Below, in pieces: positions 31,639 to 53,314 of a DNA stretch of 64,000 nt; position 1 is the stretch's first letter, and every line of letters starts with the position of its first letter. A program made the translations under genes and the position numbers. Origin of the DNA: Candidatus Dojkabacteria bacterium (GTDB lineage: Bacteria; Patescibacteriota; Dojkabacteria; B142; OLB20); contig CP129475.1 of the NCBI GenBank assembly GCA_030583785.1, forward strand, positions 768,845 through 832,844, in the 5' to 3' direction. Below the pieces are notes generated by a model. That model saw only the letters and a program-made list of their open reading frames with translations, searched no databases and had not been told where the DNA came from.

Positions 31639-31762
31639 TGCTGGAAAACGAAGCCTATATGCATTATAATAACGGCTCAGCACTTTCTGATTGAGAATCT
31701 GTTTACAAAAATCTGCCAACAAGGTTAAAATCCTTATTAATTCTATATGATATCTAGGTAAT

Positions 31763-32899: not shown

Positions 32900-32919
32900 T
32901 AGATTTTTAATGCTTTAAT

Positions 32920-33453: not shown

Positions 33454-33464
33454 TATCTTAACTA

Positions 33465-34364
33465 TTGAAAATGCAAAAACACATATACCACAAATATGTT
33501 TCAACGGATTACTTCAATATTGCTGTCAATATCTCTCTTCAAAACAATTACTTGTACGTAGAAACCCCAAAGGTCGCTTGTTCAAAGATTAAATCGATTA
33601 TTGAATGTATAGAACTGGGCAGAAACGATGTTTATGAACATAAAAGTCGGGATTTGATCCATCACAGGTCACATGCGCCTCTTCTGTCACCAAGACAAGT
33701 CTTTGACCTTGAGAAATTAATAACTGAAAGGAAAATGTATAAGTTCTGTTTCGTTAGAAATCCATATACAAGGATACTCTCTGCCTATTTGAACAAGATT
33801 GAAGCAAACGAACCTGAGAAATATCAAATACTTTATCAACTGGGTCACCCTGCTGACCTGAACATAAAACTGACATTTCATGAATTCGTAAGCGCCATAT
33901 ATGAGACACCGCTTGCACACCTAGATCCACATTGGAAGCATCAGTATTATTTAACTTATCAAGATGATATTGATTATGATTATGTTGGAAAAATTGAGAA
34001 TTTCCAAAAAGATTTCACTAACATCCTAAAAGTGATAAATAAGCGCAAGCTAGTATTTGACTTAGGTAGCAAGATCAATTCTACAGATACTGATAAGATG
34101 ATGAAGAAGCTCTATACTCGAGAAATTCGAGACATGGTATATAATAAATATCGGATCGATTTTGATTATTTTGAATATTCTCCAGAGCTAAGCGTTTTTC
34201 CCGGTGAGAAGCCAAAAACCTGCGAAATGTTTGTAGATAAAAAAGTTAACGAAGATTATATTGGAGAGAGATATGCAGCACTTAAGGAGGAGATGGAAAC
34301 GATTAATAGTACAAGACCTTGGAAAATGTATAAGAAAGTTAGAAAGACAATATTAAAGCGATAA
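33465..34364 (+). CDS. PAPS-dependent sulfotransferase, carbohydrate-sulfotransferase-like family
   Basis: 5'-PSB-like ETPKVACSKIKS and 3'-PB-like FVRNPYTRILSAY (RxPxxRxxSxY), immediately downstream of sat and cysC. Confidence 0.65.
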   Translation: MKMQKHIYHKYVSTDYFNIAVNISLQNNYLYVETPKVACSKIKSIIECIELGRNDVYEHKSRDLIHHRSHAPLLSPRQVFDLEKLITERKMYKFCFVRNPYTRILSAYLNKIEANEPEKYQILYQLGHPADLNIKLTFHEFVSAIYETPLAHLDPHWKHQYYLTYQDDIDYDYVGKIENFQKDFTNILKVINKRKLVFDLGSKINSTDTDKMMKKLYTREIRDMVYNKYRIDFDYFEYSPELSVFPGEKPKTCEMFVDKKVNEDYIGERYAALKEEMETINSTRPWKMYKKVRKTILKR

Positions 34365-39173: not shown

Positions 39174-41347
39174 GAATCCAAATTATTGGTCCCTTTGTTT
39201 CCGAATATTCTTTGGCCAGGGTAAATAGGGCAATAGCAGAAAAACTAAGACACGATCATAAAAATATAAAGCTTTCATTCTTCTCTCCAAAATATCTGTC
39301 AGGCAGTGCCGTAACCAAGTCCGATATAAAGAAGTATCCAATCCTGGAGACCCTTGTCGATGATATAGATCAAGAAGCAGATGTTCATCTTTATAGCGCT
39401 TTCCCAAAAAGCACTGCAGACAATTTAGGATTAGAGATGTTGTGTGGAAAAATTAATGCTGCCTTAATTGCATGGGAAGAAAGCGTTTTTCCAGAAAAAT
39501 GGGTGCAAGAAATCAATATGCATCTTGATGCGGTTTTTGCAATTAGTAGCCATGTGGCAAGGATTCTTGAAAGATGCGGGGTAAGAGTGCCAATCAGCAT
39601 ATTAAGCTTAGGCGTTAGCAAAGTTGAAGCCGATAATAATTATAAACTTGACTTACAGACAAGCTTCAATTTCTTGCATATTAGCTCAGGCCATATGCGT
39701 AAGGGCTTAGACTTATTGTTGCAGGCTTTCGTAGAAGAGTTCTCGCAATCTGATGAAGCTGGGCTAATTATCAAAGCACTTCCGAATCCGAATTTTAATG
39801 CCAAAAATTTCATTAAGAGTGCCAAAGGTGTCGAAGGTAGAGTTGTTCTAATTGAGGACAGTAATTTGTCAGATGCTCAAATTGCCAGTCTATATGAATA
39901 TTCTGATTGTGTGGTGCTTCCTGCTCGTGTTGAGGGGTTTAATCTGCCTGCAGCAGAGGCGATGCTCTATGAACGACCTTTAATTACAACTGCCTATAGT
40001 GGTCATTTAGATTTTTGCAATGAAACCAATTCAAGATTACTACCATACACAATTGTGCCTGCAACAGGGTCCCACTTGGCACTACCGGGTTCAAAATGGG
40101 CTGAACCAGATATCTCGGCATTAAAAACCGAGATGAGAAATATTTATAAGAATCGAGAAGTTTTTAATCGTATGGTAGCTAAGGCTAGATCGGATATTAG
40201 CAATTTCACTTGGGATAATACTGCAAGTCGCTTGCTAGAACAACTTCGGCTTTACTTGGCTATCAAAAATGCCGGTTCAATAAAGCTAGACCTAGTAAGT
40301 CCTTTTTATTCTCAAGGTGGGGTTTCGGAGTATTCTGCTGATTTATATCGTTCTTTGCCGAAGAATATTGAAGTCGAGATTCACGCTGATAAAACCAGTT
40401 CACCTACAAATACTTCTGAACCAGTAAAGCGAGATTGGTCTTCAGGGCGTGGCAAACAGCAAGAACTCATGTCGGCCTTGACTGGAAGGGACATAGTTCA
40501 TATTCAATACCATACAGATTTCTTTCCGGTGTCAATTCTAAGAGATTTGATCGCAGTTCCAAGCAAGTGCATATTGACTCTGCATATCTTAACCGCTGAA
40601 ATGACTAACACCGAAACAATTGAAGCCTTTAAAAAGTGCTCAAAGATTTATGTTCATAACCAAAGGGATTTTAATACTCTAGAATCAAAAGGGCTAAAGA
40701 ATATTCAGTTGTTCACGCATGGAATAATAGATTTTCCAGATCACTTAAGGTCAATGCTTAGATCCAGAATCGGGATCTCTGCAACAAAAGTCATTGCCAC
40801 ACATGGGCTTCTTCACGATAGAAAAGGGGTACTTGAGCTGATAGAGGCATTGGCGCTAATAAAATCGCAGATTCCGGATATTTTACTGTTATGTTTGACA
40901 GCGGTCAGCAGTCAATCTCTAAGCTCGCAGAGTATTTTCAAGAAATGTTTGAATCTTATCAGAGAAAGGAATCTTGAAGAAAATGTCATTTTTATTCCAG
41001 ACTATCTTGCTAGAGAAGAAGTATTATTTGGATTACAGATGGCAGATTTAATTGTTCTTCCGTATGCAGAACTACCAGAAGGGTCGAGTGGCGCGATTCG
41101 TACATGCGCTGCTGCCAAGAGACCAATCCTCTGCACAGAGTCAACAATATTTACGGACTTTCCTGCTGCAGAGAGAATTTCTGATAATAATCCAAAAACA
41201 ATTGCGGATGAAGTTATTGCGATGTTAAACGATGAGGGGCCCTTGCACTCGGCTGAAAGCAAGGTAAGACAATTCGTTGCTTCAAACCAATGGAGGAATC
41301 TTTCGTTGGAGTATTTTCGAGACTTAGCTCAAATAAGTGCATCCTGA
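39170..41347 (+). CDS. Tandem double-GT4 glycosyltransferase (two GT-B modules in one polypeptide)
   Basis: Two E-x7-E motifs, EGFNLPAAEAMLYERPLITT and EGSSGAIRTCAAAKRPILCT. This architecture resembles serotype-specifying mannosyltransferase-type polymerases. Confidence 0.75.
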   Translation: MRIQIIGPFVSEYSLARVNRAIAEKLRHDHKNIKLSFFSPKYLSGSAVTKSDIKKYPILETLVDDIDQEADVHLYSAFPKSTADNLGLEMLCGKINAALIAWEESVFPEKWVQEINMHLDAVFAISSHVARILERCGVRVPISILSLGVSKVEADNNYKLDLQTSFNFLHISSGHMRKGLDLLLQAFVEEFSQSDEAGLIIKALPNPNFNAKNFIKSAKGVEGRVVLIEDSNLSDAQIASLYEYSDCVVLPARVEGFNLPAAEAMLYERPLITTAYSGHLDFCNETNSRLLPYTIVPATGSHLALPGSKWAEPDISALKTEMRNIYKNREVFNRMVAKARSDISNFTWDNTASRLLEQLRLYLAIKNAGSIKLDLVSPFYSQGGVSEYSADLYRSLPKNIEVEIHADKTSSPTNTSEPVKRDWSSGRGKQQELMSALTGRDIVHIQYHTDFFPVSILRDLIAVPSKCILTLHILTAEMTNTETIEAFKKCSKIYVHNQRDFNTLESKGLKNIQLFTHGIIDFPDHLRSMLRSRIGISATKVIATHGLLHDRKGVLELIEALALIKSQIPDILLLCLTAVSSQSLSSQSIFKKCLNLIRERNLEENVIFIPDYLAREEVLFGLQMADLIVLPYAELPEGSSGAIRTCAAAKRPILCTESTIFTDFPAAERISDNNPKTIADEVIAMLNDEGPLHSAESKVRQFVASNQWRNLSLEYFRDLAQISAS

Positions 41348-41796
41348 ATTGCTTCTGCATCTTGTTTTTCTGGAGTCTTAAACACCCAAAGTTTGTAAAC
41401 CAAAAAGGTCCAAGATACCTGAAGCCCAGTGACGACGATTTTTGCCGGAACAGGATTAAGAAACACCACATATAGAAGAAATCCAAGGATTGCATTATTC
41501 GTTACATAGTTGAATGAAGCAATACTTACATATCTAAAGAGCTTCTGCTTCTTCTTTTTCCCACCTGCCTTGAATGTCCAGTAATTTGAGGCAAGGAAGT
41601 TAAACACAAGTGATAGAAGCAAAGAGATTACATTTGCAGAAAGCGGGGCGACAGAGAATACAAAAATTAGTGTATTAAAGATTAGAAAATCCAGTCCAAA
41701 CGAAGAAAAACCGACTATCAAATAGCGAACAAAGTTGATTCCCAAGGTTTTTCTTGCTCTGTTAACGAGTCTGGTTATCATAGTTTGCCGAATCAA
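41329..41796 (-). CDS. gtrA: GtrA-family small membrane protein
   Basis: INFVRYLIVGFSSFGLDFLIFNTLIFV and 4 TM helices, adjacent to a GtrB-like GT2. Confidence 0.65.
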   Translation of the reverse strand: MIRQTMITRLVNRARKTLGINFVRYLIVGFSSFGLDFLIFNTLIFVFSVAPLSANVISLLLSLVFNFLASNYWTFKAGGKKKKQKLFRYVSIASFNYVTNNAILGFLLYVVFLNPVPAKIVVTGLQVSWTFLVYKLWVFKTPEKQDAEAIQDALI

Positions 41797-42859
41797 TTAT
41801 TTTGGAAAGCTTGTCTGCGCTTTTTTCCCAGCTGTAGTTGTCAGATAGATAATCCGGGCTGGATTTTGATTTTTTTTCCTTAACCAAAGAAACCAAACCC
41901 GTGCCAATGCTTTCTACACTTTGCTGATTGCAATAACGAACTTTGTCGCCTAAGGTTTCATGAAAGATTGGAATATCTGAAACGAGTAGGGGAAGACCAT
42001 GATAAAGCGCTTCAATCGGAGGAATCCCGAAACCTTCGTAATGGCTAATGTATACAAACGCTTTGGCCTGACTGTAGAGCATTGAAAGATCTTCGTCAGC
42101 AATGTATCCGGCAAGTATAACTTTCTTTTCTAGATTGTTTTCGATTATTGTTTTGTATATCTCCTCAAAATACCAACCTTTTTTGCCAACAATGACTAAT
42201 GGAATATTTAATTGATCCTTGTATTTCGCATATGCTGTAATAAGATTAATGTAGTTTTTTCTGGGTTCTAATGTGCCAACGCTGAGAATGAATTCGGCCG
42301 GCAGGCTTTGAATTAACTCAGATGCAAGGACATCTTTGGAAGACTTGGTTATCCAGGGATTTAGACCTGGGTAGAGGACCTCAATATCATTTCGTTTTTG
42401 TTTTGAATATTCTTCAAGCTCCTTTTTAATTGTATTTGAGACTGTAACGATCTTCCAGGCTTTTTTCATAGCCTTTGACAGAGATCTTTTATACTTAAAT
42501 GCTGCTAAAGCAGGGAAGTAGTTCGGGAATTTCAGGGGCGCGATATCATGCACAAACTGTATTGTTTTTGGGAAATACCAACTAAATGAATGATTTGATG
42601 GAGAAATAAAAATATCTACCGAGTGTTTTTTTGCATGTTTTGCCACGGCTTTAATCCAGCGTTTTCCTGAAAAGGGAAGACTTCTGTTTACTTTTATGAC
42701 AACATTTTTTGTATGTGGGAGAAGCCGAGGAGTTCGTGTATAAACAATGTACTCATTTTTCTTGTCGTGTTCTACGAGTTCGGAGACTAAATTTATAGTG
42801 TATTGACCTATACCTGCAGGAGAGTCTTCGACAGGTGATAAATCTATAGCAATTTTCAT
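41762..42859 (-). CDS. Family 4 glycosyltransferase
   Basis: EGFGIPPIEALYHGLPLLVSD, a GT4 E-x7-E motif. Confidence 0.8.
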   Translation of the reverse strand: MKIAIDLSPVEDSPAGIGQYTINLVSELVEHDKKNEYIVYTRTPRLLPHTKNVVIKVNRSLPFSGKRWIKAVAKHAKKHSVDIFISPSNHSFSWYFPKTIQFVHDIAPLKFPNYFPALAAFKYKRSLSKAMKKAWKIVTVSNTIKKELEEYSKQKRNDIEVLYPGLNPWITKSSKDVLASELIQSLPAEFILSVGTLEPRKNYINLITAYAKYKDQLNIPLVIVGKKGWYFEEIYKTIIENNLEKKVILAGYIADEDLSMLYSQAKAFVYISHYEGFGIPPIEALYHGLPLLVSDIPIFHETLGDKVRYCNQQSVESIGTGLVSLVKEKKSKSSPDYLSDNYSWEKSADKLSKIIDSANYDNQTR

Positions 42860-43548
42860 TTATTAAATCTTAATCTAAGTATCTGACTCATTATATCGAT
42901 TCCATCTTTCAAATTGATTTTCTTTCCGTCTTTTTTGCCTCTGGGGAAATATTCAATATCTAGTTCTTTAATTTTCCATTTCTTTTTTAGGGCTTTTACT
43001 ACCCATTCAATTTCTAGGCCAAATCTTTCAGATTCAATATGCAGAGACTTGAAGCTGTTTAACTTGCAGAGTTTGTATGCGCATAAAGGGTCTTTAATGC
43101 TCCTGCCAAAGCAAATAAACAGCATTATTCTTGTGATAAATCTGGCTAGTTTCGTAACGAAATTCACCTTATCTCTTAGTAGTCTGCTACCTGCAACCAT
43201 ATCCACCTTATCTGTATTTATGATATGAAGCATTCGCAGAATGTCCTGCGGGTCGAGTTCGGAGTCGGCATCTTCAACGATCATGTATTTACCTTTGGCA
43301 TGGGCTGCACCATTAAGAACAGCAGCGCCTTTACCTTTATTTTTGGCATGAAGTATTAGTTTTAGCCTAAGTTCGGGCTGCAGTTTTTTTAATAATTCCC
43401 TACTTCCGTCTGTGGAATAATCATCGATAACGATGATTTCTTTGTCGACATCAAGTTCGTGTATCGTTCTTACAACATGCTCGACCGTCTTTATCTCGTT
43501 CCAGACAGGGATAATGATACTGATTTCAGGTTGTCGAATTTTAAGCAT
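42856..43548 (-). CDS. gtrB: Polyprenyl-phosphate sugar synthase, GT2 (GtrB/DPM1/ArnC-like). The track ORF extends to 43629; an internal start at 43548 avoids overlap with galE.
   Basis: ISIIIPVWNE…IVIDDYSTDGS, the DXD motif VEDADS, and a C-terminal hydrophobic region. Confidence 0.7.
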   Translation of the reverse strand: MLKIRQPEISIIIPVWNEIKTVEHVVRTIHELDVDKEIIVIDDYSTDGSRELLKKLQPELRLKLILHAKNKGKGAAVLNGAAHAKGKYMIVEDADSELDPQDILRMLHIINTDKVDMVAGSRLLRDKVNFVTKLARFITRIMLFICFGRSIKDPLCAYKLCKLNSFKSLHIESERFGLEIEWVVKALKKKWKIKELDIEYFPRGKKDGKKINLKDGIDIMSQILRLRFNK

Positions 43549-44542
43549 AATCGGTTTTTGGTCTTTTTTGTTCCCATTCCCAAGCACTGCTAATGATGTC
43601 TTCGAGATCGTATTTTGCTTTCCAGCCAATCATTTTTTCAATTTTGCTTGGATCTGCAATTAAACTTGCTGAATCCCCTATTCTTCTTGGGGCAACTTCA
43701 TAATTGATTTTTTTGCCTGTAATGGCTTCTGCTGATTGGATTACTTCAAGAATACTTGTTCCTTTGCCTGTACCAATATTGAATACTTCGAAACCCTTGT
43801 TGGCCATGACATAATCTATGCAGGTGGCGTGTGCTTCTGCTAGATCAACGATATGAATATAATCCCTAACGGCTGTTCCGTCAGGAGTATCATAATCGTT
43901 TCCGAAAACCTTCATGACAAAATCGTCTGTAGTTAAGCCATGAAGTAGTCTTGGTATGAGGTGGGTTTCTGGGTTGTGTCGTTCTCCGATAAGGCCGTTA
44001 TAGGAGCCTGCAGGATTGAAGTATCTAAGTGCAACAACATTTACATCGGCAAAATTCGCATAACTTCTAAGAATCTCTTCTGTGACATATTTAGTCATGG
44101 CATAAGGGTTCTCTAAGCTGATTTTGTCAGTTTCTTTAATGGGGACAGATTCAGGTGTGCCGTAAACTGCAGCAGATGACGAGAAGATGAAGTTTTTGTT
44201 CCCGTTAGCGATCAAGGCATCAAATAGAAATTGGCTACCAACAACATTATTATTAACAAAGGCCACTGGTTTTTCAGTTGAAATGCCAACTTCGATAGAT
44301 GCTGCAAAGTGTATAACTGCATCAAAGGTTCGGTTTTCAAGAGCATGTTGCAGTTCTTGCTGGTTTTGAAGTTCGAGCTTTAAAAGTTCAAAATCCCCTG
44401 CTTCAGATCTTAGGGTCTCGAGTATGTCTTCTTTGTGTTTTTGCAGATGATCGAGAATTGTGACTTTATGACCTGCCTTGATTAGTGTCAGTGCAGTATG
44501 TGAGCCTATATAACCCGCTCCTCCTGTGATAAGAATGTTCAT
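43541..44542 (-). CDS. galE: UDP-glucose 4-epimerase
   Basis: MNILITGGAGYIGSH Rossmann motif, YAMTKYVTE (YxxxK), and the SDR extended family. Confidence 0.85.
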   Translation of the reverse strand: MNILITGGAGYIGSHTALTLIKAGHKVTILDHLQKHKEDILETLRSEAGDFELLKLELQNQQELQHALENRTFDAVIHFAASIEVGISTEKPVAFVNNNVVGSQFLFDALIANGNKNFIFSSSAAVYGTPESVPIKETDKISLENPYAMTKYVTEEILRSYANFADVNVVALRYFNPAGSYNGLIGERHNPETHLIPRLLHGLTTDDFVMKVFGNDYDTPDGTAVRDYIHIVDLAEAHATCIDYVMANKGFEVFNIGTGKGTSILEVIQSAEAITGKKINYEVAPRRIGDSASLIADPSKIEKMIGWKAKYDLEDIISSAWEWEQKRPKTDYA

Positions 44543-44553
44543 AGATGTTTGAA

Positions 44554-46335
44554 TTACATGTAAAGTATATCATCCCAGGCATGTCGGTACAGCCCTTGTT
44601 TTAGTCGTTTTTGATCTAGTGCATGTCCGATTATTCCGATTGATCTGCTTAGCGCAAACAAACCGTTAAGCATTCCTGCATCTACAATTTCTTCTATCTC
44701 GGTTTGTGTGAATCGACTTGATTTTAGAATATCAAGAAAGATTGCAGCAGTTGCACCATCGACATTCAGAATCAAGTTATTCTTCTTTTTTAGTGTTTCC
44801 TGTTCAACAGCCAGTGCGTAGTTTAAATACCTTGTGGCTTTTAGATTCTGTTTAGCAAATTTTCTAAGTAATAATACCCGCTTGTCAGGATTAAGAGAGG
44901 TTCGAATCTTGTGACCAATCCCAAGTATAAGCTCACCTTTATTTTTCATTTCGTCGATAAATTCACGAGGCGAGATTTTTCTTTGGTCGCAGGAAAGCAT
45001 CCATTTAGCAGCTCCATCAAGAGCTCCTCCATGTCTTGGCCCGATAGTAGTAAGACCAGCTATTAAGCTGTCGATGACATCTTTCCCTGCTCGTGCAGTA
45101 ACAATCGCGTTATGTGCAGTTGCAACCGCAGGTCCGTGATCGGCCATAAGTTTAACTGCGAGTTCAAGAAAATCTTCCCCGACTTTGTTTAATTTTCCCT
45201 TAAACCACAGTTGATTGAGTAAGAAACCAATTGATCTTGATACAAAAGAGCTTATCTCTTTTTTATTGTATAAAGGTTCAGCGCCTCGGTCGTCTGATAT
45301 TGAGCTGACGATGCTTGTAGGTCTTCGAAAACTTGTTGATAATTGTGGACTGATTTGACTCGGCTCTTTGTATTCTTTGTCGCTAAGCACAAATTTTGTG
45401 AAGACATCGTTAATTGTCTTCCCAAGTTCGTTAAAAGATTTTGGAATATATGCGCCTGCATTTTTCAAGGCAGTATTTTTTGCTTGTGCCGATTCTTGAT
45501 CATTCCCCGATCTTGCGTTGGCGTGACCAAATTGGACTTCGGAGTTGAATTGGCTAGCAACAGTTCCGCTTACCCATGCCACAATTGGTTTTGTAATCTT
45601 ACCAGAAGTTATTGCCTCGGCCACTTCAATTTCTGCTTTGCCTCCGATTTCGCCAAGCATGACAAGCATCTTTGTTTGTGGATAACTATGTAGTCGCAGA
45701 AGATTTTCTAATAAGGTCGTCCCAGGATAAGTATCACCACCAACTGCTATGCCTTCGCTCACCCCATCGCTGTTTTGGCTGATAATATGATACATCTCAA
45801 GTGACATTCCTCCAGACACTGTAACTACACCAACGCTTCCGGGGCGATATAGTTTTGCACTTACAATGCTTTCTATAGAACCTGCTGTGTTTCCTATTCT
45901 GAATGATCCTGGTTTGATTCCCCCAACTGTTGCCGGTCCGATAAACCAAACATTATTCAGTTTCGCAAGCCTGATTAATTCTCTGGTTTGGTTTTCTGGC
46001 ATTCCTTCTGCAGTAACTGCTACAGTGCGAATGCTATCTTGCAGAATTGCTTCTTTTGTCGAGACAAACGCAGAACGCATCGAAGCGAAGCTTACAAACA
46101 CATCTGCCCGTGCATGGTTCTTACATGCTTCGGCAATCGAATCATAAACCGGTATTAGTATTTCGGAACTTCCGAAAAATGCTTTGTGCAATCCAGATGA
46201 TCCTTTGTGCACAATTGCTACAATGCTAGGGTTCTCTCTTCTGCAAAGCCAGTCATAATCGAGCATATGTTGGATAGGTTCAGGGTGAAGATTGTAAAAA
46301 ATTGCCTGTGTTTGTTTACTGAATAGTTCTTTCAT
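44554..46335 (-). CDS. aclA: ATP-citrate lyase large subunit (CoA-binding, phosphohistidine and citrate-synthase-like/citryl-CoA lyase domains)
   Basis: Succinyl-CoA synthetase alpha-like region with active-site His (QFGHANA), plus a C-terminal citrate-synthase-like GIIGHALDQ. Its start overlaps the aclB stop (TAATG). Confidence 0.85.
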   Translation of the reverse strand: MKELFSKQTQAIFYNLHPEPIQHMLDYDWLCRRENPSIVAIVHKGSSGLHKAFFGSSEILIPVYDSIAEACKNHARADVFVSFASMRSAFVSTKEAILQDSIRTVAVTAEGMPENQTRELIRLAKLNNVWFIGPATVGGIKPGSFRIGNTAGSIESIVSAKLYRPGSVGVVTVSGGMSLEMYHIISQNSDGVSEGIAVGGDTYPGTTLLENLLRLHSYPQTKMLVMLGEIGGKAEIEVAEAITSGKITKPIVAWVSGTVASQFNSEVQFGHANARSGNDQESAQAKNTALKNAGAYIPKSFNELGKTINDVFTKFVLSDKEYKEPSQISPQLSTSFRRPTSIVSSISDDRGAEPLYNKKEISSFVSRSIGFLLNQLWFKGKLNKVGEDFLELAVKLMADHGPAVATAHNAIVTARAGKDVIDSLIAGLTTIGPRHGGALDGAAKWMLSCDQRKISPREFIDEMKNKGELILGIGHKIRTSLNPDKRVLLLRKFAKQNLKATRYLNYALAVEQETLKKKNNLILNVDGATAAIFLDILKSSRFTQTEIEEIVDAGMLNGLFALSRSIGIIGHALDQKRLKQGLYRHAWDDILYM

Positions 46336-47612
46336 TATAGTTTGTTAACTGCTAATTCAATTATGTGTGTCATATAAGTTTCTGGTCCAAACACATGAGC
46401 TTCTATGTCTAGATTTTGCATTTCGGTCTTCATCAATTGAAGTCCTTCTTCGTAATTAGGTCCACCTCGTCGAACAAAAATTACGATCCCTTGTCTCTTG
46501 ATCTGTTGAGAGTTCTGTTTTATTGCAGATATAAGTCCAATAAATGTTTTCTTGATATCTGTGAAATTGGCTATCCCCCCTCCAATAATTAAAACTTTCT
46601 TCTTGGCTTTGCTATTGAGCATCAGTTTAATCACAATGTCGGCATATTCCTCTGTTTCATCTGTGCTTGGGTTTCCGCTATATTCCCCATAATTTGCTAA
46701 CTGATTTGCAAAACCCAGGTCTCCAACTGTATCTGCAAAGATAACGCTTCCTCCTCCCCCCGATGTCAGCATCCAGATACTACCGTTTCTATTTAGAACT
46801 TTAAGTTTTAACGAGGCTCCCGATTTTGAGTCAATCTGTTCTACAACAAGCTCCTCTGGAAGTGCTTCTCCTCCGAAGGGTTTAGGGAAAGTTATCCCCG
46901 CTCGACCCCAAATCAGCGAGTTTTTGTAGTACGCTGTATCATCAAGTCTGGCGACGCAATCAAGCATTTGTATGCCTTGGTCGGTTAGTACAAACGGATT
47001 AATTTCTAGGTATGTAAAATCTAGTTCGCAATATAATTGATAGAGTGCATCAATGAATGTGAGGACTATATCTTTCTCGTTCTCTGAAAGTTGAGCCGAT
47101 ATTTTGTCTAAGACAAGTTTTGGTAAAGGAGTAGGCTCGATTGTAAATGGAATCTTCAACTCAATTGTGTCATTCCAATTCTCTTCAATATCTACTCCGC
47201 CCTTATTTGAGAAATAAATCACATTGTGATCTCTTTGGCTACTAATAGACAGGTAGAATTCCTTCTCGTGAGGGATTTTGGGCTCAACCAGAAAAGTGAA
47301 AAGCTTTCCTTGTATTGTCCTGACACTTGAAACTTGTAGTTTTATTGTTTGAGAAGACTTCTGTTTAATCCACTGAATTATTTCAGTTTTGTTATTACTC
47401 ATAAAGATTAAGTTGTTCTTGCCCCTTTTGCCGAATAACTCGTCGGGCTTTGCTACATAGCCGTTATCGAAATCCGGAAGACTGATGCTATCGACATTGT
47501 CCGGTGTAATCTGAACTCCTTGGTACTCTTGGAAAAAATGATCTGTATATTTGCTAATATTCTGGTGAATAAGTTTCTTGGCAGAGAATTCTTGTATTGC
47601 TTTTTGTGCCAT
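46335..47612 (-). CDS. aclB: ATP-citrate lyase small subunit (ATP-grasp, succinyl-CoA synthetase beta-like)
   Basis: Near-colinear match to the eukaryotic ACLY N-terminus: VAKPDELFGKRGK; YLEINPFVL; KSGASLKLKVLNRNGSIWMLTSGGGGSV…ANYGEYSGNPS; FVRRGGPNYEEGL. Confidence 0.85.
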   Translation of the reverse strand: MAQKAIQEFSAKKLIHQNISKYTDHFFQEYQGVQITPDNVDSISLPDFDNGYVAKPDELFGKRGKNNLIFMSNNKTEIIQWIKQKSSQTIKLQVSSVRTIQGKLFTFLVEPKIPHEKEFYLSISSQRDHNVIYFSNKGGVDIEENWNDTIELKIPFTIEPTPLPKLVLDKISAQLSENEKDIVLTFIDALYQLYCELDFTYLEINPFVLTDQGIQMLDCVARLDDTAYYKNSLIWGRAGITFPKPFGGEALPEELVVEQIDSKSGASLKLKVLNRNGSIWMLTSGGGGSVIFADTVGDLGFANQLANYGEYSGNPSTDETEEYADIVIKLMLNSKAKKKVLIIGGGIANFTDIKKTFIGLISAIKQNSQQIKRQGIVIFVRRGGPNYEEGLQLMKTEMQNLDIEAHVFGPETYMTHIIELAVNKL

Positions 47613-47614
47613 TA

Positions 47615-48535
47615 TTATTTCAGGACTGATATTAATTCCGACTTCGCTTTCTTGAAGCGAGCGTCAGGCAATAAACCATATTCTATACTGTCTGGATCAG
47701 TTTCGTGATGCGTTAGTTTGAAAAAATCTTCAATATTTTCTGCGAATGTCTGATTGTATTGAGCAGCAATGCAGGCTCCTTCTCGAAGGTAGAGATAATT
47801 TAGTCCCTTCCAGTCGTTTATATTTTTAATTATTTCAATAGCGTCTGTATTTGATTTCAGACGATAAAAAGGAGATTCTTCGATGAAGCTGAATAGTTCT
47901 CGTTTATCTATGCTATTTAGGAATTGTTCGATCAAGCTTGCAATTACTCTTCTTTTAGAAGGATATCTGCGAGCTAGGTTAATGTACAGCATATAGACAA
48001 CGCCGAATCTGTTGTTGTGGCTTAGGATTCTAATATTATAAAACTCACCTTCAATTTCCGGAACTTCTTGAGTCAAGTGTCCACGATAATTAACCTTTGG
48101 TGGCATAAAATCAACATAGCAGAAATCCCCTTCGTGAATCCTAAATACGCAGTTGCGGATTGCCGTGTCTATTCCTACAGGAAGAATCTCATTATTTGTT
48201 GAAGAAAGTAGTGGTTTGTAGATGTCGTTAAGCATTCGTTCTAGGTACATTTCGAAGTTGCTTTCGTCAACGACATCGACAAAATCTAGTCCTTCAAATT
48301 TCTCGATGACTACAAGTTGAAAAAGATTATCCTCTTTCTGAATCTCGATATTCTCTAATCTTGAAATTGGGATATGAAGATCTTCAAAGGCAGATCTTTG
48401 CAGTACGATTCTTTGCATCAGGTCCTCTAGGTCTTGTCTGTTTAGTGTGGGTAGAGTGTATCTCTTTTCGATATACTTACTTCCAGACTTATCAAATATC
48501 CTTAGGTTTGAATAGTATTTTATTTCTTTCGACAT
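47615..48535 (-). CDS. Hypothetical protein with a possible divergent kinase-like fold
   Basis: …AIRNCVFRIHEGDFCYVDFMPPK… loosely resembles a kinase catalytic/DFG region, which is weak evidence. Sits between aclB and manC. Confidence 0.3.
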   Translation of the reverse strand: MSKEIKYYSNLRIFDKSGSKYIEKRYTLPTLNRQDLEDLMQRIVLQRSAFEDLHIPISRLENIEIQKEDNLFQLVVIEKFEGLDFVDVVDESNFEMYLERMLNDIYKPLLSSTNNEILPVGIDTAIRNCVFRIHEGDFCYVDFMPPKVNYRGHLTQEVPEIEGEFYNIRILSHNNRFGVVYMLYINLARRYPSKRRVIASLIEQFLNSIDKRELFSFIEESPFYRLKSNTDAIEIIKNINDWKGLNYLYLREGACIAAQYNQTFAENIEDFFKLTHHETDPDSIEYGLLPDARFKKAKSELISVLK

Positions 48536-48540
48536 TATCT

Positions 48541-49629
48541 TTAGAGAAACTTTTCCAGCTCTGTGTTTTCAAATTCCTTAAGCATGGCCTTTATAGTCGG
48601 GATCTGATTTTTATGGCAGACAAGAACAGCATCTGGTGTATTGACTACGATATAACCATCTAGACCGATTGTTGTTACGATTTGCTTTTTTACGAAATTG
48701 TATACTAGCGAATCTTTGGTCTGGAAGTTGTAAACAAGCCCTTTTGTTACATTGTCGTCTTCGTTCTCCTGCAGAAATTGTTTTAAGGCATATAGAGTAC
48801 CGGGGTCAGCCCAATTATACTCTCCGCCAAGAACTAGGCTAAGGTCGTCGTCCATCTTTTCTAGGATAGCATCATCAAAAGAAATTGATTCCATTGATGG
48901 GTATATTTTTGCTAGAACTTCACTCTCTTGATCTGTGTCGAGAGCTTTTTGTATCGTCATTAACTGCTGATACATTTCTGGCTGATGTGTTTTGTACTGA
49001 TCAATAATAAAGTTGGGAGTGGTTACAAAATACCCAGGATTCCAAAGGTGGGTGTCTTTTTCAAACCACTGTTTGGCATCTTCTAATTTTGGTCGGTAAA
49101 CAAATCCTGCCTTTTCGTAAATGATAAGTCCGTTATCTTTGTTTATAATCTTGCCCTTTTTAATCCAGCCAAGGTTTTCGTTAGGGTAGGCAGGTTTCTC
49201 TCCAAGAAACAATAGTTTGTTTGGATCCTTTTTGATAAAGGATTCAGCGACAGAAAGAGCCTTTTTAAAATTCGATTTGTTGCCAATGTAGCCGTCGCTC
49301 CACAGAATTGTTGTGGGTTCTGATCCTGCGCCGTGTTTTGCCAGGGTAATCATCGCCAGTCCTACAGCCGGAGCCAGATCTCTTCTAACCGGTTCGGTAA
49401 TAATATGATTGAGGGGAAGCGATGGAAAGTTATTTTTAACAAGTGCGGCTAGAAGTTCGGTTGTCGGTACATATATTTGATTCCAACCGTACCATTCAGA
49501 AAGGTCATCTAGCAGTCGAGCTATTGTGGATTTATTGTTTATTAAGGGTATAAATTGTTTGGGGTACTTGTTTCTGCTGATTGGCCAGAATCTCGTCCCT
49601 GAACCTCCAGCGAATAGAATAATTTTCAT
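48541..49629 (-). CDS. manC: Mannose-1-phosphate guanylyltransferase (nucleotidyltransferase domain only)
   Basis: MKIILFAGGSGTRFWPISRNKYPKQF is the ManC/CpsB N-terminal signature. No cupin PMI domain follows. Confidence 0.7.
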   Translation of the reverse strand: MKIILFAGGSGTRFWPISRNKYPKQFIPLINNKSTIARLLDDLSEWYGWNQIYVPTTELLAALVKNNFPSLPLNHIITEPVRRDLAPAVGLAMITLAKHGAGSEPTTILWSDGYIGNKSNFKKALSVAESFIKKDPNKLLFLGEKPAYPNENLGWIKKGKIINKDNGLIIYEKAGFVYRPKLEDAKQWFEKDTHLWNPGYFVTTPNFIIDQYKTHQPEMYQQLMTIQKALDTDQESEVLAKIYPSMESISFDDAILEKMDDDLSLVLGGEYNWADPGTLYALKQFLQENEDDNVTKGLVYNFQTKDSLVYNFVKKQIVTTIGLDGYIVVNTPDAVLVCHKNQIPTIKAMLKEFENTELEKFL

Positions 49630-49697: not shown

Positions 49698-50678
49698 TTA
49701 TAGCTTGGAAATGATTTCTGCAATCTTTGCTGGATCATGCCTGATAAAGCTTCTTGGAACAACATCACTTGATACTCTTTTGAATTCGTGACCTTCTAGC
49801 CATAATTTGTCACGAATGACATTGTAGGCATCTGTGTCAGCCAGATCGTCTAATACCATTTCCCACTTTTCATCTTGATACTTTTGGTTAATATCTTGAG
49901 GAAGTGGAGAATTATTTACAATAACATGATCGATTTCTGTTCCTAAATACTTCTGAACTTCATTGACAAAATTAGAGGCTCGCCAGCCGTGAGTTTGGTT
50001 AAATTTTGTCATCAAATTACATACATAAATGATTTCTGCATTTGATTCTTTTATTGCATCTGTAATCCCCTCTACCAGTAAATTCGCCACGATATTGGAA
50101 TAGATATCGCCAGGTCCAAGCACGATTTTGTCTGCACTTCGAAGTGCAGCAAGGGCTTTGTCGTATGCCTTGGGTGTAGGCTTTAGATAAGCTCTAGTAA
50201 CTTTATGTCCGTTCATTAATGGTAGGTTATCAATTTCGTGCTGGCTTTCTAGTATCGTTCCGTCATCGTATTCGCAACCTAGGGTAATGCTTTCTGTGGT
50301 AGATGGGTAAACTTCGCCTCGTACACGCAGTATTTGATGTGCAATACGCAATGCTTCTGGAATATCTCCTTTCGTAGCTTCGAATAAGCCAAGTAATATA
50401 ATGTTTCCCACACTATGACCTTTTAAATCTTTACCTTTTTCGAAACGGTGCATGAAGACTTTTGCCAGAGCTTCGTTTTCTGCAAGACCAACTAAGGCAT
50501 CTCTAAAGTCGCCTCCAAAAGAAGGCATTCCATACTCTTCACGCATTCTGCCAGTGCTGCCTCCATCGTCGGCCATAGCCAAAACAGTAGCTACATCAAT
50601 ATCTGAATAATCTCTAAGTCCGGTAAGTATCATTAATGATCCTGTACCTCCACCAAGGGTGACAATTTTTTGTTTCAT
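49698..50678 (-). CDS. YvcK/CofD family (UPF0052) protein. The track ORF extends to 50756; the likely start is MKQKIV at 50678.
   Basis: KIVTLGGGTGSLMILTGL…VLAMADDGGSTGRMR…GGDFRDALVGL matches the family consensus. Confidence 0.75.
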   Translation of the reverse strand: MKQKIVTLGGGTGSLMILTGLRDYSDIDVATVLAMADDGGSTGRMREEYGMPSFGGDFRDALVGLAENEALAKVFMHRFEKGKDLKGHSVGNIILLGLFEATKGDIPEALRIAHQILRVRGEVYPSTTESITLGCEYDDGTILESQHEIDNLPLMNGHKVTRAYLKPTPKAYDKALAALRSADKIVLGPGDIYSNIVANLLVEGITDAIKESNAEIIYVCNLMTKFNQTHGWRASNFVNEVQKYLGTEIDHVIVNNSPLPQDINQKYQDEKWEMVLDDLADTDAYNVIRDKLWLEGHEFKRVSSDVVPRSFIRHDPAKIAEIISKL

Positions 50679-50712
50679 AATTTTATATATACCTGTTCGA
50701 GATTGTACATCT

Positions 50713-51612
50713 TTACGAAATGAAACTGAACCCCCTGCTGCAATATGTAGATCCATCTGCGAATACGATCATTCCTTCTATCTCTTCGGTCGTATCCAGA
50801 AGATCTGGGCCTTGTTTTCCGGAGGCAAATAAGATTGTCGCCCAAACATCGGCTGTTTGCGCATCGTTTGCCAAAGTAAATGTCTGGCTAACCTCGTTGA
50901 TAGGCATGCCTGTTTTTGGATTTAAAAGGTGATGAAAGAAACGAACTCTTCTTCCCCAGCCACCAGATGCAGCTAAACTTTGGTTGATAATATTTATGTG
51001 GCCAAAGTAGCCACCGCCAACACCTTTGTTTGGAAGCTCGTGCTGAGCCAAGCCGACAGTCCAAGGGCCATCGGGTTTGCTACCATGAGCTCTAATATCT
51101 CCGCCTGCATTGATAATAAAATTATTGACAGGTTCTAATACAGATGCTGCCAGATCGATAGCCAATCCTTTACCGATGCTGCCCAGGTCGATCCGTTGTC
51201 CTGCTTGCAACTTGATTGCCGAGTTGGTTTTGTCAAATTTTATGTCTCGAAACGAGGGACGAGTTTTCAGATAGGTTTGAATATTCTTCAATAGGTTCTC
51301 GTCTTTGAGCTCTTCATAGTTCGAATCTTTTTTAAAACCATACATCTCAAGTAAATCAATAATTGTAGGATCAAAGGCGCCTTCGGTCAGGGTTGAGTAT
51401 TGTATTAGTTTTTCTATCAGCGTAAAAAGTTCAGGATTTACTTTATGAAAATGACCGCTGTTTCTATTAAGTGATGAAAGCTCGCTAGTTTGATTAAACC
51501 TTGTGTATTTTTCGGTTACATAATCAAACTTAGAGAAGGCCTCTTTGATTAAGTCGCGTGAAGACACCGTTCCCAGGTCAGAGAAAATACGGATTCTAAC
51601 TTTTGTGTTCAT
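50713..51612 (-). CDS. apbE: FAD:protein FMN transferase ApbE family. The track ORF extends to 51651; the likely start is MNTKV at 51612.
   Basis: SELSSLN, GAFDPTI and IDLGSIGKGLAID, which are ApbE family motifs. Confidence 0.75.
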   Translation of the reverse strand: MNTKVRIRIFSDLGTVSSRDLIKEAFSKFDYVTEKYTRFNQTSELSSLNRNSGHFHKVNPELFTLIEKLIQYSTLTEGAFDPTIIDLLEMYGFKKDSNYEELKDENLLKNIQTYLKTRPSFRDIKFDKTNSAIKLQAGQRIDLGSIGKGLAIDLAASVLEPVNNFIINAGGDIRAHGSKPDGPWTVGLAQHELPNKGVGGGYFGHINIINQSLAASGGWGRRVRFFHHLLNPKTGMPINEVSQTFTLANDAQTADVWATILFASGKQGPDLLDTTEEIEGMIVFADGSTYCSRGFSFIS

Positions 51613-51625
51613 ATATATTCTCTCT

Positions 51626-52348
51626 TCAGAGAACTCTCTTGTTTCTGGCATCGGAGATTTTGCGAAGAGTTAATGCCCCAAGGCTTATTAGGAGTAGCCC
51701 TAAAACGAGTCCGGCTGGACCGCCAATATCGCCCGTGATGCTGTTGTTGGGAAGCCTTGTTGGGAATGCTGTGCCACTTGTAATTATTGTTGGTGTAACT
51801 GTTACTGAACTATCTGAAACAGTAATACTTAAACTATTTGTATATTGAAGAATATCTGTAGAGTTAAGCGTTTGGAGCGAACTATTATTCTTGTTAACTT
51901 CTACCTGACCTAGCCCAAGCTGCTTTCCTTTAAAGGTTATTCTTGCAACGCTTCTGTTGCTAAAACTTGCCCCTCCTTGTGGACTGGAAGCCTTAAGGTT
52001 GATTACTCCATTTGCTTGGTTTACAGAGTTTTCATCGACTTCAAAAAAATTATCTAGGTATGCAATTTGTGTATTTGAAACAGCTGGTTGTGCGTCGACG
52101 ACTTCAAGCAGATTGGGATTATAAACAATTTGCACATTGTAACTACTTATTTCTTGAGATTTCGAGTCAATAACAATATCTACGGTCATATTCTGCCCAA
52201 TACCAATTCCGAACTGATCTGTTGTCATGGTAATGCTTGGACCTGTAACTGTTGTTGGCGTAACTGCTCCTCCGGGAGGATCGAAAGGAATAGTTGGACT
52301 AGCGATTTCGTCCAAAGTTTGAGCTTGTGCCGATTGTATAATATTCAT
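51626..52348 (-). CDS. Hypothetical Thr/Ser-rich protein with a C-terminal TM anchor and basic tail (sorting-signal-like), but no N-terminal signal peptide
   Basis: The C-terminus …ITGDIGGPAGLVLGLLLISLGALTLRKISDARNKRVL. An in-frame small ORF (52352..52552) lies upstream, separated by a single TAA codon. Confidence 0.4.
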   Translation of the reverse strand: MNIIQSAQAQTLDEIASPTIPFDPPGGAVTPTTVTGPSITMTTDQFGIGIGQNMTVDIVIDSKSQEISSYNVQIVYNPNLLEVVDAQPAVSNTQIAYLDNFFEVDENSVNQANGVINLKASSPQGGASFSNRSVARITFKGKQLGLGQVEVNKNNSSLQTLNSTDILQYTNSLSITVSDSSVTVTPTIITSGTAFPTRLPNNSITGDIGGPAGLVLGLLLISLGALTLRKISDARNKRVL

Positions 52349-52603: not shown

Positions 52604-53314
52604 ATGGCAAACATTTTTGTAATAAAGCTCGGCGGATCAATGCTATCTAAGGGAGAAAACAATATTTTTGATTTTGAATATCTGCGAGATCTTCGAAGTA
52701 CACTCGATCCTTTCATTCAAAGAGGCGATAAGTTTTTCATTGTTTTGGGTGGAGGTTACACAATGCGCAAGTATCGGGATCTTGCGATGGCTGCAGGTCT
52801 GCAAGAGAAGGAGCAACTTCATTGGATCGGAACAACTGTCAATGTGCTTCATGCAGAAATTGTAAGAGCTTATTATCATGATATCAGCGATGAAGGTGTG
52901 TTTAAGTACGAAGATTATTATCAGGATGCTAATCTGACAATCACAAAATCAATTAAAGTTGGGGGAGGTGGAAGGCCAGGTCATAGTGGTGATGTTGATG
53001 CAGTTCTTGCTGCCAACAAGGTTTCATCTAAGACAATCATTAGCTTGAAGAATGTTGATGGCGTCTACGACAAAGACCCGTCCAAAAATCCCGATGCAGT
53101 GCGTCAAGAAAAACTATCCTGGGATGAATACCTAGACATTATTGGTAATAAAGACGAACATGAACCCGGAGGAAACTATCCGATTGATCCTATAGCTTCC
53201 CGTATGTCCAAAGACAGCGACATTAGTTTTAATGTGCTTCATGGAAATGATTTGCAGAGTTTGTCTTCGGCTTTGAAGGGAGAAGAATTTACAGGTACAA
53301 TAGTAGGTAATTAA
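52604..53314 (+). CDS. pyrH: Archaeal-type UMP kinase (amino-acid-kinase fold)
   Basis: IKLGGS…, VLGGGYTMRKYRDLA, GGGRPGHSGDVDAVLAA, NVDGVYDKDPSKNPDA, and a YPIDPIAS block colinear with archaeal PyrH. Isopentenyl-phosphate kinase is the alternative call. Confidence 0.55.
   Translation: MANIFVIKLGGSMLSKGENNIFDFEYLRDLRSTLDPFIQRGDKFFIVLGGGYTMRKYRDLAMAAGLQEKEQLHWIGTTVNVLHAEIVRAYYHDISDEGVFKYEDYYQDANLTITKSIKVGGGGRPGHSGDVDAVLAANKVSSKTIISLKNVDGVYDKDPSKNPDAVRQEKLSWDEYLDIIGNKDEHEPGGNYPIDPIASRMSKDSDISFNVLHGNDLQSLSSALKGEEFTGTIVGN

Follow-up and report, generated by a model that had tools for sequence, protein, structure and literature searches.

The ATP-citrate lyases (ACLs) with which the present gene pair can be compared differ in the way the reaction is divided among polypeptides. 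Human ACLY is one chain, in which a linker (residues 420-490, about 70 in all) bears regulatory phosphorylation sites. The archaeal enzyme of Methanothrix (Methanosaeta) concilii, ACLY-A/B (6HXI, 6ZNW), is built from two separate subunits, and so is AclBA of Chlorobium limicola (6HXJ), the classical bacterial enzyme, which serves the autotrophic reverse TCA (rTCA) cycle. In Hydrogenobacter the same two chemical steps are carried out by homologous domains placed on separate enzymes, citryl-CoA synthetase and citryl-CoA lyase (CCS and CCL; 6HXQ, 6HXP). Among CPR bacteria, ACL has already been published for Gracilibacteria and Saccharimonadia (PMC6851277, PMC12577380). In one Gracilibacteria genome (BD1-5; Sieber et al. 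2019, PMC6851277), which is without glycolysis and has citrate transporters, the ACL has two subunits and archaeal affinity, and was interpreted as a means of splitting imported citrate into acetyl-CoA and oxaloacetate.

Judged by sequence, aclB and aclA of the 64-kb stretch of DNA analysed here (the window), from a Candidatus Dojkabacteria bacterium with a tiny genome, are a genuine two-subunit ACL (EC 2.3.3.8) of the archaeal/eukaryote-like type. The small subunit AclB (46335..47612, minus strand; 425 aa) comprises the ATP-grasp and citrate-binding domains, and the large subunit AclA (44554..46335, minus strand; 593 aa) joins a CoA-binding/CoA-ligase part with the phosphohistidine loop to a fused citryl-CoA lyase domain; both were assigned by Pfam, human ACLY and the PDB entries 6hxi_A (AclB) and 6hxi_B (AclA). 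In Pfam, AclB matched Citrate_synth_N (PF24948) with 194 bits (cut-off 83) and Citrate_bind (PF16114) with 237 bits (cut-off 27), and AclA matched Ligase_CoA with 60.5 bits and Citrate_synt (PF00285) with 86 bits over residues 374-584. The genes are adjacent and co-oriented, as in the heteromeric AclA/AclB type, and their junction reads CTATAATGAAAG, base 46335 being common to the TAA stop of aclB and the ATG of aclA (1-nt overlap). The sequence-only reading had described overlapping TAATG stop/start codons; this is right for the aclB/aclA junction, but the stop of the preceding 306-aa ORF (47615) and the start of aclB (47612) are closely packed without a true overlap.

AclB residues 1-422 align with human ACLY 1-419 (42.0% identity, E about 1e-90) and AclA residues 3-592 with human 491-1093 (49.8% identity, E 2.5e-182). 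The pair is colinear with the human protein over all catalytic domains, and the gene break falls exactly at the human linker. The best PDB matches were the M. concilii subunits (AclB to 6hxi_A, E 9.5e-102; AclA to 6hxi_B, E 8.6e-187), and E-values ranging from 1e-90 to 1e-187 rule out chance similarity. Bit scores against the M. concilii, human and C. limicola proteins were 625, 611 and 308 for AclA and 344, 306-313 and 143 for AclB, i.e., those of M. concilii and human are about twice those of C. limicola. The earlier claim of a eukaryote-like, two-subunit ACL colinear with human ACLY is thus borne out, and its ORF coordinates and quoted identical blocks (ANYGEYSG, FVRRGGPNY and YLEINP in AclB, GIIGHALDQ in AclA) were all found as given. 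The window subunits have the same lengths and domain order as those of M. concilii, and differ from them in a ligase-lyase linker of AclA that is approximately 10 residues shorter and in the phosphohistidine loop, which reads GHAGA there and GHANA here. The C. limicola enzyme has the reaction, the two subunits and the aclB-aclA order in common with the window pair, but is far more distant and belongs to an autotrophic rTCA cycle, of which nothing was found in the sequence scanned here. The ACL of Gracilibacteria, likened by description, belongs to another CPR lineage.

The residues expected of an active enzyme are in place. G313, N349, T351 and R382 of AclB, which we take to be the equivalents of G309, N346, T348 and R379, the citrate-binding residues of human ACLY citrate-complex structures, are invariant across 79 aligned AclB sequences. 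In AclA, residues E110, H271, H400, H475, D526, R564 and R584 align with human E599, H760, H900, H975, D1026, R1065 and R1085, and none of the seven varies among the aligned residues of 104 sequences, R584 being gapped in one. The window pair therefore has both its catalytic and its citrate-site residues in common with human ACLY. These alignments take in 17 AclA and seven AclB sequences of Dojkabacteria. AclA carries the citryl-CoA lyase domain as a C-terminal fusion, with the catalytic His/His/Asp in place; in 6ZNW of M. concilii the catalytic Asp is mutated (NVDG to NVAG), whereas its counterpart here, D526, is intact. The residue that changes GHAGA to GHANA replaces a glycine found in 101 of the 104 sequences, the histidine itself being kept, and the variant loops GHANA or GHAKA occur in the window and in one related locus (L008). 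We count this substitution among the points against the explanation that we prefer.

By analogy with ACLY and with the enzymology of M. concilii ACLY-A/B, ATP would be bound by the ATP-grasp domain of AclB, which would also bind citrate. His271 of AclA would take the phosphate and hand it on to citrate, and CoA would attack the resulting citryl-phosphate to give citryl-CoA. The citrate-synthase-like domain at the C-terminus of AclA (His400, His475, Asp526) would then split citryl-CoA to acetyl-CoA and oxaloacetate. Knowledge of the ACL enzyme itself is unchanged by the present findings.

Homologues were found by an alignment-based profile search of genome contigs; a single-protein query gave no relative. 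At least 569 GTDB species genomes from many phyla of archaea and bacteria encode this ACL type; among them are genomes of Anaerolineae, Syntrophia, Myxococcota, Elusimicrobia and Peribacteria. The view taken in the sequence-only reading, that ACL in bacteria occurs mostly in rTCA autotrophs, is outdated. Since ACL of CPR bacteria had been published before, the present case is also less of a surprise than was assumed there. An identical protein is encoded on the NCBI MAG contig JACFOF010000007.1 (GCA_019454465.1) and recurs on at least 23 contigs that stem from several runs of sequencing, and the nearest relatives come from named Candidatus Dojkabacteria (CPR), with 56-66% identity. For the assembly accession, the literature shows only that run SRR12344472 is part of an anammox-enrichment study. 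In a neighbor-joining tree with midpoint rooting and without a Chlorobi-type outgroup, the Dojkabacteria AclA sequences formed one clade (bootstrap 100/100) with internal identities down to 54%, and the one other CPR sequence in the tree, from Peribacteria (L039), fell outside it. As the nearest homologues are from Dojkabacteria, form a single, internally diverged clade and the GC content is unremarkable, the gene is suggested to be old and vertically kept in this lineage. Dojkabacteria grouped with DPANN archaea and plants at 52% bootstrap, a value at which no claim on a donor is made. A deep bacterial clade is hereby added to the archaeal/eukaryote-like ACL family, one relevant to the debate on the origin of eukaryotic ACL without resolving it. 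Proteins of approximately 1026 aa (P0002-P0009), considered as candidates for a fused prokaryotic ACLY, proved to be tandem duplications of the large subunit without the AclB part.

In the window, aclBA is embedded in a run of minus-strand genes related to surface glycans. At its head are an ApbE flavin transferase (50713..51651; Pfam ApbE, with a weak match to NF007774) and a CofD/YvcK-like protein (49698..50756; TIGR01826, 254.6 bits, cut-off 196). Past a 68-nt gap, the first gene encodes a manC-like mannose-1-phosphate guanylyltransferase (48541..49629; Pfam NTP_transferase and ManC_GMP_beta-helix), which lacks the isomerase part and for this reason scores 200 bits with TIGR01479, under the cut-off of 373. 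Between manC and aclB lies the 306-aa ORF (47615..48535), which has a protein-kinase-like fold and no match in PHROGs. Downstream of aclA, after 11 nt, follow galE for UDP-glucose 4-epimerase (43541..44542; TIGR01179, 379.5 bits, cut-off 262), a GT2 glycosyltransferase of the polyprenyl-phosphate hexose synthase/AglJ type (42856..43548; Pfam Glycos_transf_2, with NCBIfam matches to AglJ, PpgS and dolichyl-phosphate hexose transferase, each under cut-off), a GT4 glycosyltransferase (41762..42859; Pfam Glyco_transf_4 and Glycos_transf_1) and, at the end of the co-directional run, a GtrA-family membrane protein (41329..41796; Pfam GtrA_DPMS_TM).

The position of aclBA next to manC and galE on the same strand, which had been pointed out as unusual, is real and conserved across Dojkabacteria. 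manC precedes aclB, either immediately or separated by no more than the kinase-like ORF, at all nine Dojkabacteria loci with upstream sequence, and galE follows aclA at seven of the ten with downstream sequence; neither gene was found at the 77 non-Dojkabacteria loci. The common order is ApbE-manC-(kinase-like ORF)-aclB-(HAD)-aclA-galE-GT2-GT4-GtrA, the HAD gene standing between the subunit genes in some relatives. ApbE is found ahead of manC in L008, L009, L090, L091 and L092, and the GT4 gene is kept downstream in L007-L010, L091 and L092. The core ApbE-manC-aclBA is retained despite differing outer flanks: L090 has SMC-like genes there, and L091 and L092 have an ATP synthase operon. The wider order (LemA, SBP, SecG, PyrH) is also kept in L008 and L009, and part of the synteny may therefore reflect small-genome inertia rather than functional coupling. 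With gaps around aclBA of -1 to 11 nt, the genes from manC to GtrA, possibly with ApbE and CofD, appear to be transcribed together. A promoter/terminator scan gave 32 promoter-like sites vs. 30.5 expected from shuffled sequence, so the operon structure is drawn from spacing alone; Rfam and tRNA scans of the window gave no match. One candidate promoter lies in the 68-nt gap ahead of manC. The new point is a modest one: Dojkabacteria keep ACL inside a cell-surface sugar operon, not beside citric-acid-cycle genes. No glycan-operon context is given for the Gracilibacteria enzyme in PMC6851277.

We favor, with a probability of about 0.6, the reading that these tightly packed genes encode a functional heteromeric ACL that most likely splits scavenged citrate for acetyl-CoA and oxaloacetate. 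The citrate would come from hosts or the environment, both products would serve as building blocks, and the role would resemble that of cytosolic ACLY in eukaryotes, with which it would share the logic of making acetyl-CoA from citrate outside the TCA cycle, rather than carbon fixation. A preference for such a role over rTCA had been voiced before, and it is also the best reading here. The archaeal-like ACL of a Gracilibacteria genome with citrate transporters has been understood likewise (PMC6851277). CPR bacteria have very few routes to central metabolites, and each route informs on what they take from their hosts. The retention of ACL throughout Dojkabacteria, a lineage reported to be without glycolysis, suggests that scavenged citrate serves as a currency for both acetyl-CoA and oxaloacetate, and the fixed place of ACL in a surface-glycan operon offers a concrete connection, open to testing, of carbon scavenging with the building of the envelope.

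Other explanations differ in how far they depart from this reading. That the pair is succinyl-CoA synthetase (SucCD), the outcome named beforehand as the one that would overturn the assignment, or citryl-CoA synthetase and lyase as distinct enzymes, taken for ACL in error, has practically no chance of being true. Common ancestry and weak matches to the SucC and SucD models speak for it, but these matches are far under the cut-offs (TIGR01016, 93 vs. 376 bits; NF004230, 141 vs. 336 bits), the ACL-specific Pfam domains are far above theirs, the alpha-like subunit carries the lyase domain in the same chain, and PDB matches to the Hydrogenobacter CCS and CCL reach only E 1e-17 and 5e-9 (individual values 3e-17, 6e-18 and 5e-9). 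It is also very improbable that the pair was re-purposed for another carboxylic acid in glycan decoration and is no longer a citrate lyase. Such a change would fit the conserved place amid genes for sugar nucleotides and glycosyltransferases, the unusual loop of the window and L008, and the insertion into the gene pair of a kinase-like ORF or HAD phosphatase peculiar to the lineage; against it, none of the four citrate-binding residues and no catalytic residue of the citryl-CoA lyase varies within the Dojkabacteria clade, and full-length identity to characterised ACLs is 42-50%. We give as little credence to the view that ACL is the citrate-cleaving step of an rTCA cycle by which CO2 is fixed autotrophically, the case in Chlorobi, Nitrospira or Campylobacterota. 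ACL is a classical rTCA marker, and most other prokaryotic loci of this type adjoin aconitase or IDH: the flanks fetched contain one or both at 58 of the 77 non-Dojkabacteria loci, and among the loci fetched those of Methanothrix have either in their flanks except L079, a short 5.3-kb contig. Yet both genes are absent from all ten distinct Dojkabacteria loci and the window, with none in 258 kb (window plus L001-L012) and none in L090-L092. No TCA or rTCA enzyme, be it 2-oxoglutarate:ferredoxin oxidoreductase, fumarate reductase, PFOR, aconitase or IDH, was recognised when window ORFs of 150 aa or more were scanned with Pfam or NCBIfam. The CPR genomes studied in PMC5113843, those of Dojkabacteria included, are moreover reported to be without a complete TCA cycle and an electron-transport chain. 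The window protein is also far nearer to the archaeal/eukaryotic type than to Chlorobium ACL.

Two further explanations accept the enzyme and question its use. The ACL reaction is close to equilibrium, so its direction is unreadable from sequence, and reverse operation is known in Desulfobacter. An enzyme running as an ATP-yielding citrate synthase, with substrate-level phosphorylation as in Desulfobacter postgatei, would provide extra ATP of value to a fermentative CPR cell; F-type ATP synthase genes nearby in L091 and L092 say little either way. We regard this as improbable, given that it needs independent sources of acetyl-CoA and oxaloacetate as well as use or export of citrate, none of which was seen, and that the Dojkabacteria of PMC5113843 are reported to have neither near-complete glycolysis nor fermentation routes to acetyl-CoA. 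Somewhat less improbable, but still unlikely, is that ACL is the entry to a mainly catabolic citrate metabolism (pyruvate from oxaloacetate, acetate plus ATP from acetyl-CoA), its glycan-operon place being mere conserved order without functional meaning. A like scheme was proposed for Gracilibacteria (PMC6851277), the flanking housekeeping order is kept between the window, L008 and L009, and the operon holds no acetyl-CoA-using enzyme. On the other side, the core ApbE-manC-aclBA persists where outer flanks differ (L090, L091, L092), its stop and start codons overlap or nearly touch, the ATP cost of ACL would cancel the ATP gained from acetyl-CoA so that little energetic gain is left, and acetate-forming capacity is reported absent in Dojkabacteria (PMC5113843).

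If scavenged citrate is split as we prefer, the acetyl-CoA may feed envelope synthesis by way of mevalonate-derived polyprenyl-phosphate carriers or N- or O-acetylated sugars. Dojkabacteria are reported to have enzymes of the mevalonate pathway, the genes for which are clustered in CPR bacteria with cis-prenyltransferase (PMC6107057). We consider it possible, though doubtful, that the Dojkabacteria ACL is a dedicated envelope-biogenesis enzyme, co-transcribed with genes for GDP-mannose, UDP-galactose and polyprenyl-phosphate glycosyltransferases, and the main or only source of acetyl-CoA for the mevalonate lipid carriers of surface glycans and possibly for sugar acetylation. Such an enzyme would parallel, in bacteria, the citrate-ACLY-mevalonate/acetylation axis of eukaryotes and would have been retained from the phylum ancestor onward, and the lineage-specific kinase-like ORF or HAD phosphatase inserted in the gene pair might tune it. 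The operon has no citrate transporter, GlmU, mevalonate gene beyond IDI-2 or other clear acetyl-CoA consumer. A 236-aa ORF of the amino-acid-kinase family (52604..53314), considered as an isopentenyl phosphate kinase, scored better as an archaeal-type UMP kinase, under cut-off, and the 225-aa ORF adjoining the IDI-2 gene matched no family even at an E of 1. Bearing on acetyl-CoA demand, the window does encode this type-2 IPP isomerase (IDI-2; TIGR02151, 374 bits, cut-off 281), and its sole candidate acetyl-CoA consumer is a GNAT acetyltransferase at 60856..61359.

The two open reading frames of the ATP-citrate lyase (ACL) lie on the minus strand, exactly where the sequence-only reading had placed them: aclB, encoding the small subunit (425 aa), at 46335..47612, and aclA, encoding the large subunit (593 aa), abutting it at 44554..46335. 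The overlapping stop and start codons described in that reading were seen at the aclB/aclA junction, where the final A of the aclB TAA doubles as the A of the aclA ATG, and every sequence block that it had quoted was found in the two proteins. Pfam searches gave AclB an ATP-grasp domain of the ACL-specific kind (PF24948, 194 bits) together with the citrate-binding domain of ACL (PF16114, 237 bits); AclA matched CoA-ligase and citrate-synthase-like domains. Among solved structures, AclB and AclA aligned end to end with Methanothrix concilii ACLY-A/B (6HXI; E 9.5e-102 and 8.6e-187), and they aligned with residues 1-419 (E about 1e-90) and 491-1093 (E 2.5e-182) of human ACLY, respectively. Identity to the human enzyme, counted from the structure-database alignments, was 42.0% for the N-terminal and 49.8% for the C-terminal part. 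Chlorobium limicola ACL (6HXJ), in contrast, scored at most half as high against the window proteins as the M. concilii and human enzymes did. The identification as ACL is thus supported by both domains and alignments. The alternative that the pair encodes succinyl-CoA synthetase (SucCD), already doubted in the earlier reading, is excluded, since the NCBIfam SucC and SucD models gave 93 and 141 bits, far under their cut-offs of 376 and 336.

Residues were numbered via alignments to human ACLY. AclA E110, H271 (the phosphohistidine), H400, H475, D526, R564 and R584 correspond to human E599, H760, H900, H975, D1026, R1065 and R1085, and D526 also matches the position that is mutated in 6ZNW, an M. 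concilii entry in which citryl-CoA is trapped. These seven positions are conserved across 104 aligned sequences (17 from Dojkabacteria), with R584 gapped in one of them. AclB G313, N349, T351 and R382, counterparts of the human citrate-site residues G309, N346, T348 and R379, are invariant in 79 aligned sequences (7 from Dojkabacteria). From these conserved residues and the characterised homologues it follows that the pair is predicted to carry out ACL chemistry. The phosphohistidine signature GHAGA reads GHANA in the window AclA (residues 270-274, 45519..45533, minus strand) and GHAKA in its nearest relative (locus L008, protein P0012); Gly occupies the variant position (N273 in the window) in 101 of the 104 aligned AclA sequences and in 117 of 120 database hits.

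An identical AclA is encoded on the MAG contig JACFOF010000007.1 (GCA_019454465.1) and on 23 or more contigs spread over several sequencing runs, one of which (SRR12344472) comes from an anammox-enrichment study. The nearest named homologues belong to Candidatus Dojkabacteria (56-66% identity), followed by DPANN archaea and plants (52-55%), and several of the Dojkabacteria relatives are already annotated as ATP citrate synthase at NCBI. The GC content stays at about 39% across the window and does not shift at the ACL genes, and the housekeeping genes are of CPR (Candidate Phyla Radiation) style (PNPase, MurJ, RecA, RNase Y, ParAB, IleRS, Lgt, Fmt and SecDF-like).

A phylogeny against Chlorobi, archaeal and eukaryotic ACL had been proposed in the sequence-only reading. 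AclA was placed relative to archaea and plants in a neighbour-joining tree (a simple distance method; 104 sequences, 600 columns) that lacks a Chlorobi-type outgroup. The Dojkabacteria AclA form a single clade (bootstrap 100/100) with internal identity down to 54%. In our reading, the ancestor of those Dojkabacteria that carry ACL probably either acquired the gene once, long ago, or inherited it. Plants cluster with three sequences from Micrarchaeota (91/100), in agreement with the reported branching of eukaryotic ACLA/B with DPANN archaea (PMC11976288). The grouping of Dojkabacteria, DPANN archaea and plants reached only 52/100, and the Peribacteria AclA is placed elsewhere, apart from Dojkabacteria.

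Scanning GTDB by pattern, with each species represented by one genome, yielded a confirmed relative of the archaeal/eukaryote-like ACL in at least 569 genomes. The best 80 of these include archaea (Bathyarchaeia, Thermoplasmatota, Methanothrix, Asgard and DPANN archaea), bacteria (Anaerolineae, Syntrophia, Myxococcota, Elusimicrobia, Aquificota, Bacillota and Vicinamibacterales) and, besides Dojkabacteria, one CPR lineage, Peribacteria. Given this spread, the view that ACL in bacteria belongs mostly to autotrophs using the reductive TCA cycle (rTCA) is outdated. Within CPR, a Gracilibacteria genome was described with a two-subunit, archaeal-like ACL, "rarely detected in CPR" (PMC6851277), and aclAB was found enriched in Saccharimonadia MAGs (PMC12577380); our literature search found no paper on ACL in Dojkabacteria. 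Neither the kind of enzyme nor its archaeal/eukaryote-like form in bacteria is thus new, and its occurrence in CPR was known before. New here are the Dojkabacteria-wide clade, its conserved glycan-operon embedding without TCA neighbours, the kinase-like and HAD genes inserted specifically in this lineage, and the GHANA loop variant.

To describe this embedding, we compared ten distinct Dojkabacteria loci (the window, L007-L012 and L090-L092), plus one contig by gene table alone. manC lies upstream of aclB in all nine loci with upstream sequence, and galE downstream of aclA in 7 of the 10 with downstream sequence, followed in these seven by GT4 and GtrA and in five of them also by GT2. Near ACL at 77 non-Dojkabacteria loci, neither manC, galE nor the 306-aa ORF described below was found. 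The position beside manC and galE, noted earlier as unusual, holds across the Dojkabacteria. Aconitase and/or isocitrate dehydrogenase occur in the fetched flanks of 58 of the 77 other loci, whereas none was found in those of Dojkabacteria (Fisher's p 5e-6, uncorrected for shared ancestry), and tblastn with representatives of both enzymes gave no match in 258 kb (the window and fetched loci L001-L012). Given the lack of TCA neighbours and the manC/galE context, the Dojkabacteria ACL stands apart from TCA genes, within a run of envelope-glycan genes.

The 306-aa ORF (47615..48535) separates manC from aclB in four Dojkabacteria loci. It had no match in Pfam, NCBIfam or PHROGs. One search gave only 18 homologous clusters, the named hits being Dojkabacteria, WS6 or Patescibacteria; in another, just 94 of 1.84 billion representatives matched at E up to 1e-3, the distant ones with weak similarity to DUF6206. 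Its AlphaFold model (17 sequences) is confident (pLDDT 89.2, pTM 0.89), and the invariant motifs D123-x4-N128 and D142-F143 are compatible with an active kinase; in this setting, a kinase acting on sugars or small molecules would make sense. In one group of Dojkabacteria (four loci), a HAD-IA phosphatase gene lies between aclB and aclA (L011, 2810..3490; L012, 6406..7068; L090, 9346..9993; and the contig of P0013); it is PpaX/phosphoglycolate-phosphatase-like, although under every cut-off. L012 additionally carries a PIN-like toxin/antitoxin pair there. ApbE precedes manC in five other loci (L008, L009, L090-L092) and is also upstream in the window, with CofD/YvcK in between. In the window (50713..52348, minus strand), the gene for this ApbE flavin transferase overlaps the end of one for a secreted or anchored protein of 240 aa that weakly matches a cohesin domain and may be flavinylated outside the cytoplasm. 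In L090, manC-aclBA likewise follows these two genes, and L009, L091 and L092 have an unannotated ORF of about 250 aa at the position of the cohesin-like gene.

The physiological role we infer is cleavage of scavenged citrate, which would supply acetyl-CoA and oxaloacetate for biosynthesis. We favour it because the Dojkabacteria loci have no TCA neighbours, and because the CPR genomes of PMC5113843 have no complete TCA cycle and their Dojkabacteria no near-complete glycolysis or fermentation capacity. The same reading, cleavage of imported citrate, was given for Gracilibacteria (PMC6851277) and further favours it. It is also favoured by the mevalonate-pathway enzymes reported in Dojkabacteria (in CPR, mevalonate genes cluster with cis-prenyltransferase; PMC6107057) and by a type-2 isopentenyl-diphosphate isomerase in the window (12141..13154, minus strand; TIGR02151, 374 bits, cut-off 281), which hints at mevalonate-type isoprenoid synthesis. 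The 225-aa ORF beside it (11459..12136) had no family match.

Judging by the operon context, the acetyl-CoA may go into the envelope, by way of polyprenyl-phosphate carriers and acetylated sugars, although neither an enzyme that uses acetyl-CoA nor a citrate carrier is encoded at the ACL locus itself. Rival readings are an rTCA role, ATP-yielding flux through ACL in reverse, a changed substrate, which the invariant citrate site speaks against, and a purely catabolic use in which the synteny has no meaning. Some of the synteny may indeed be inertia, as the window, L008 and L009 also share their outer flanks (LemA, a solute-binding protein, SecG and a PyrH-like kinase), yet the core is kept in L090-L092 despite different outer flanks. 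Overall, the ACL observation of the sequence-only reading is real and its interpretation essentially right.

Several other features were observed. Metagenomic proteins of about 1026 aa (P0002-P0009) contain the ACL large subunit tandemly duplicated within one polypeptide, AclA being followed by a second copy that lacks the N-terminal part (aligning from query residue 143); the copies share 47% and 44% identity with the window AclA, and an AclB part is missing. The first lyase domain seems degenerate in P0002 (ADRDP, GIGHCTYS), the one member that was compared closely. In the window, a 276-aa protein (10636..11466, plus strand) fuses a HEPN domain to a nucleotidyltransferase domain, resembling a toxin-antitoxin module. 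A class-I aminoacyl-tRNA synthetase of the Ile/Leu/Val/Met family (21694..25746, minus strand) is unusually long (1350 aa), with a large insertion separating the two halves of its catalytic domain. At 29536..34364 (plus strand), genes for an ABC-2 type permease and ATPase come before those for ATP sulfurylase, APS kinase, a Sulfotransfer_2 protein, a 1141-aa WsaF_C-domain protein and a GT2, which suggests synthesis and export of a sulfated surface glycan.
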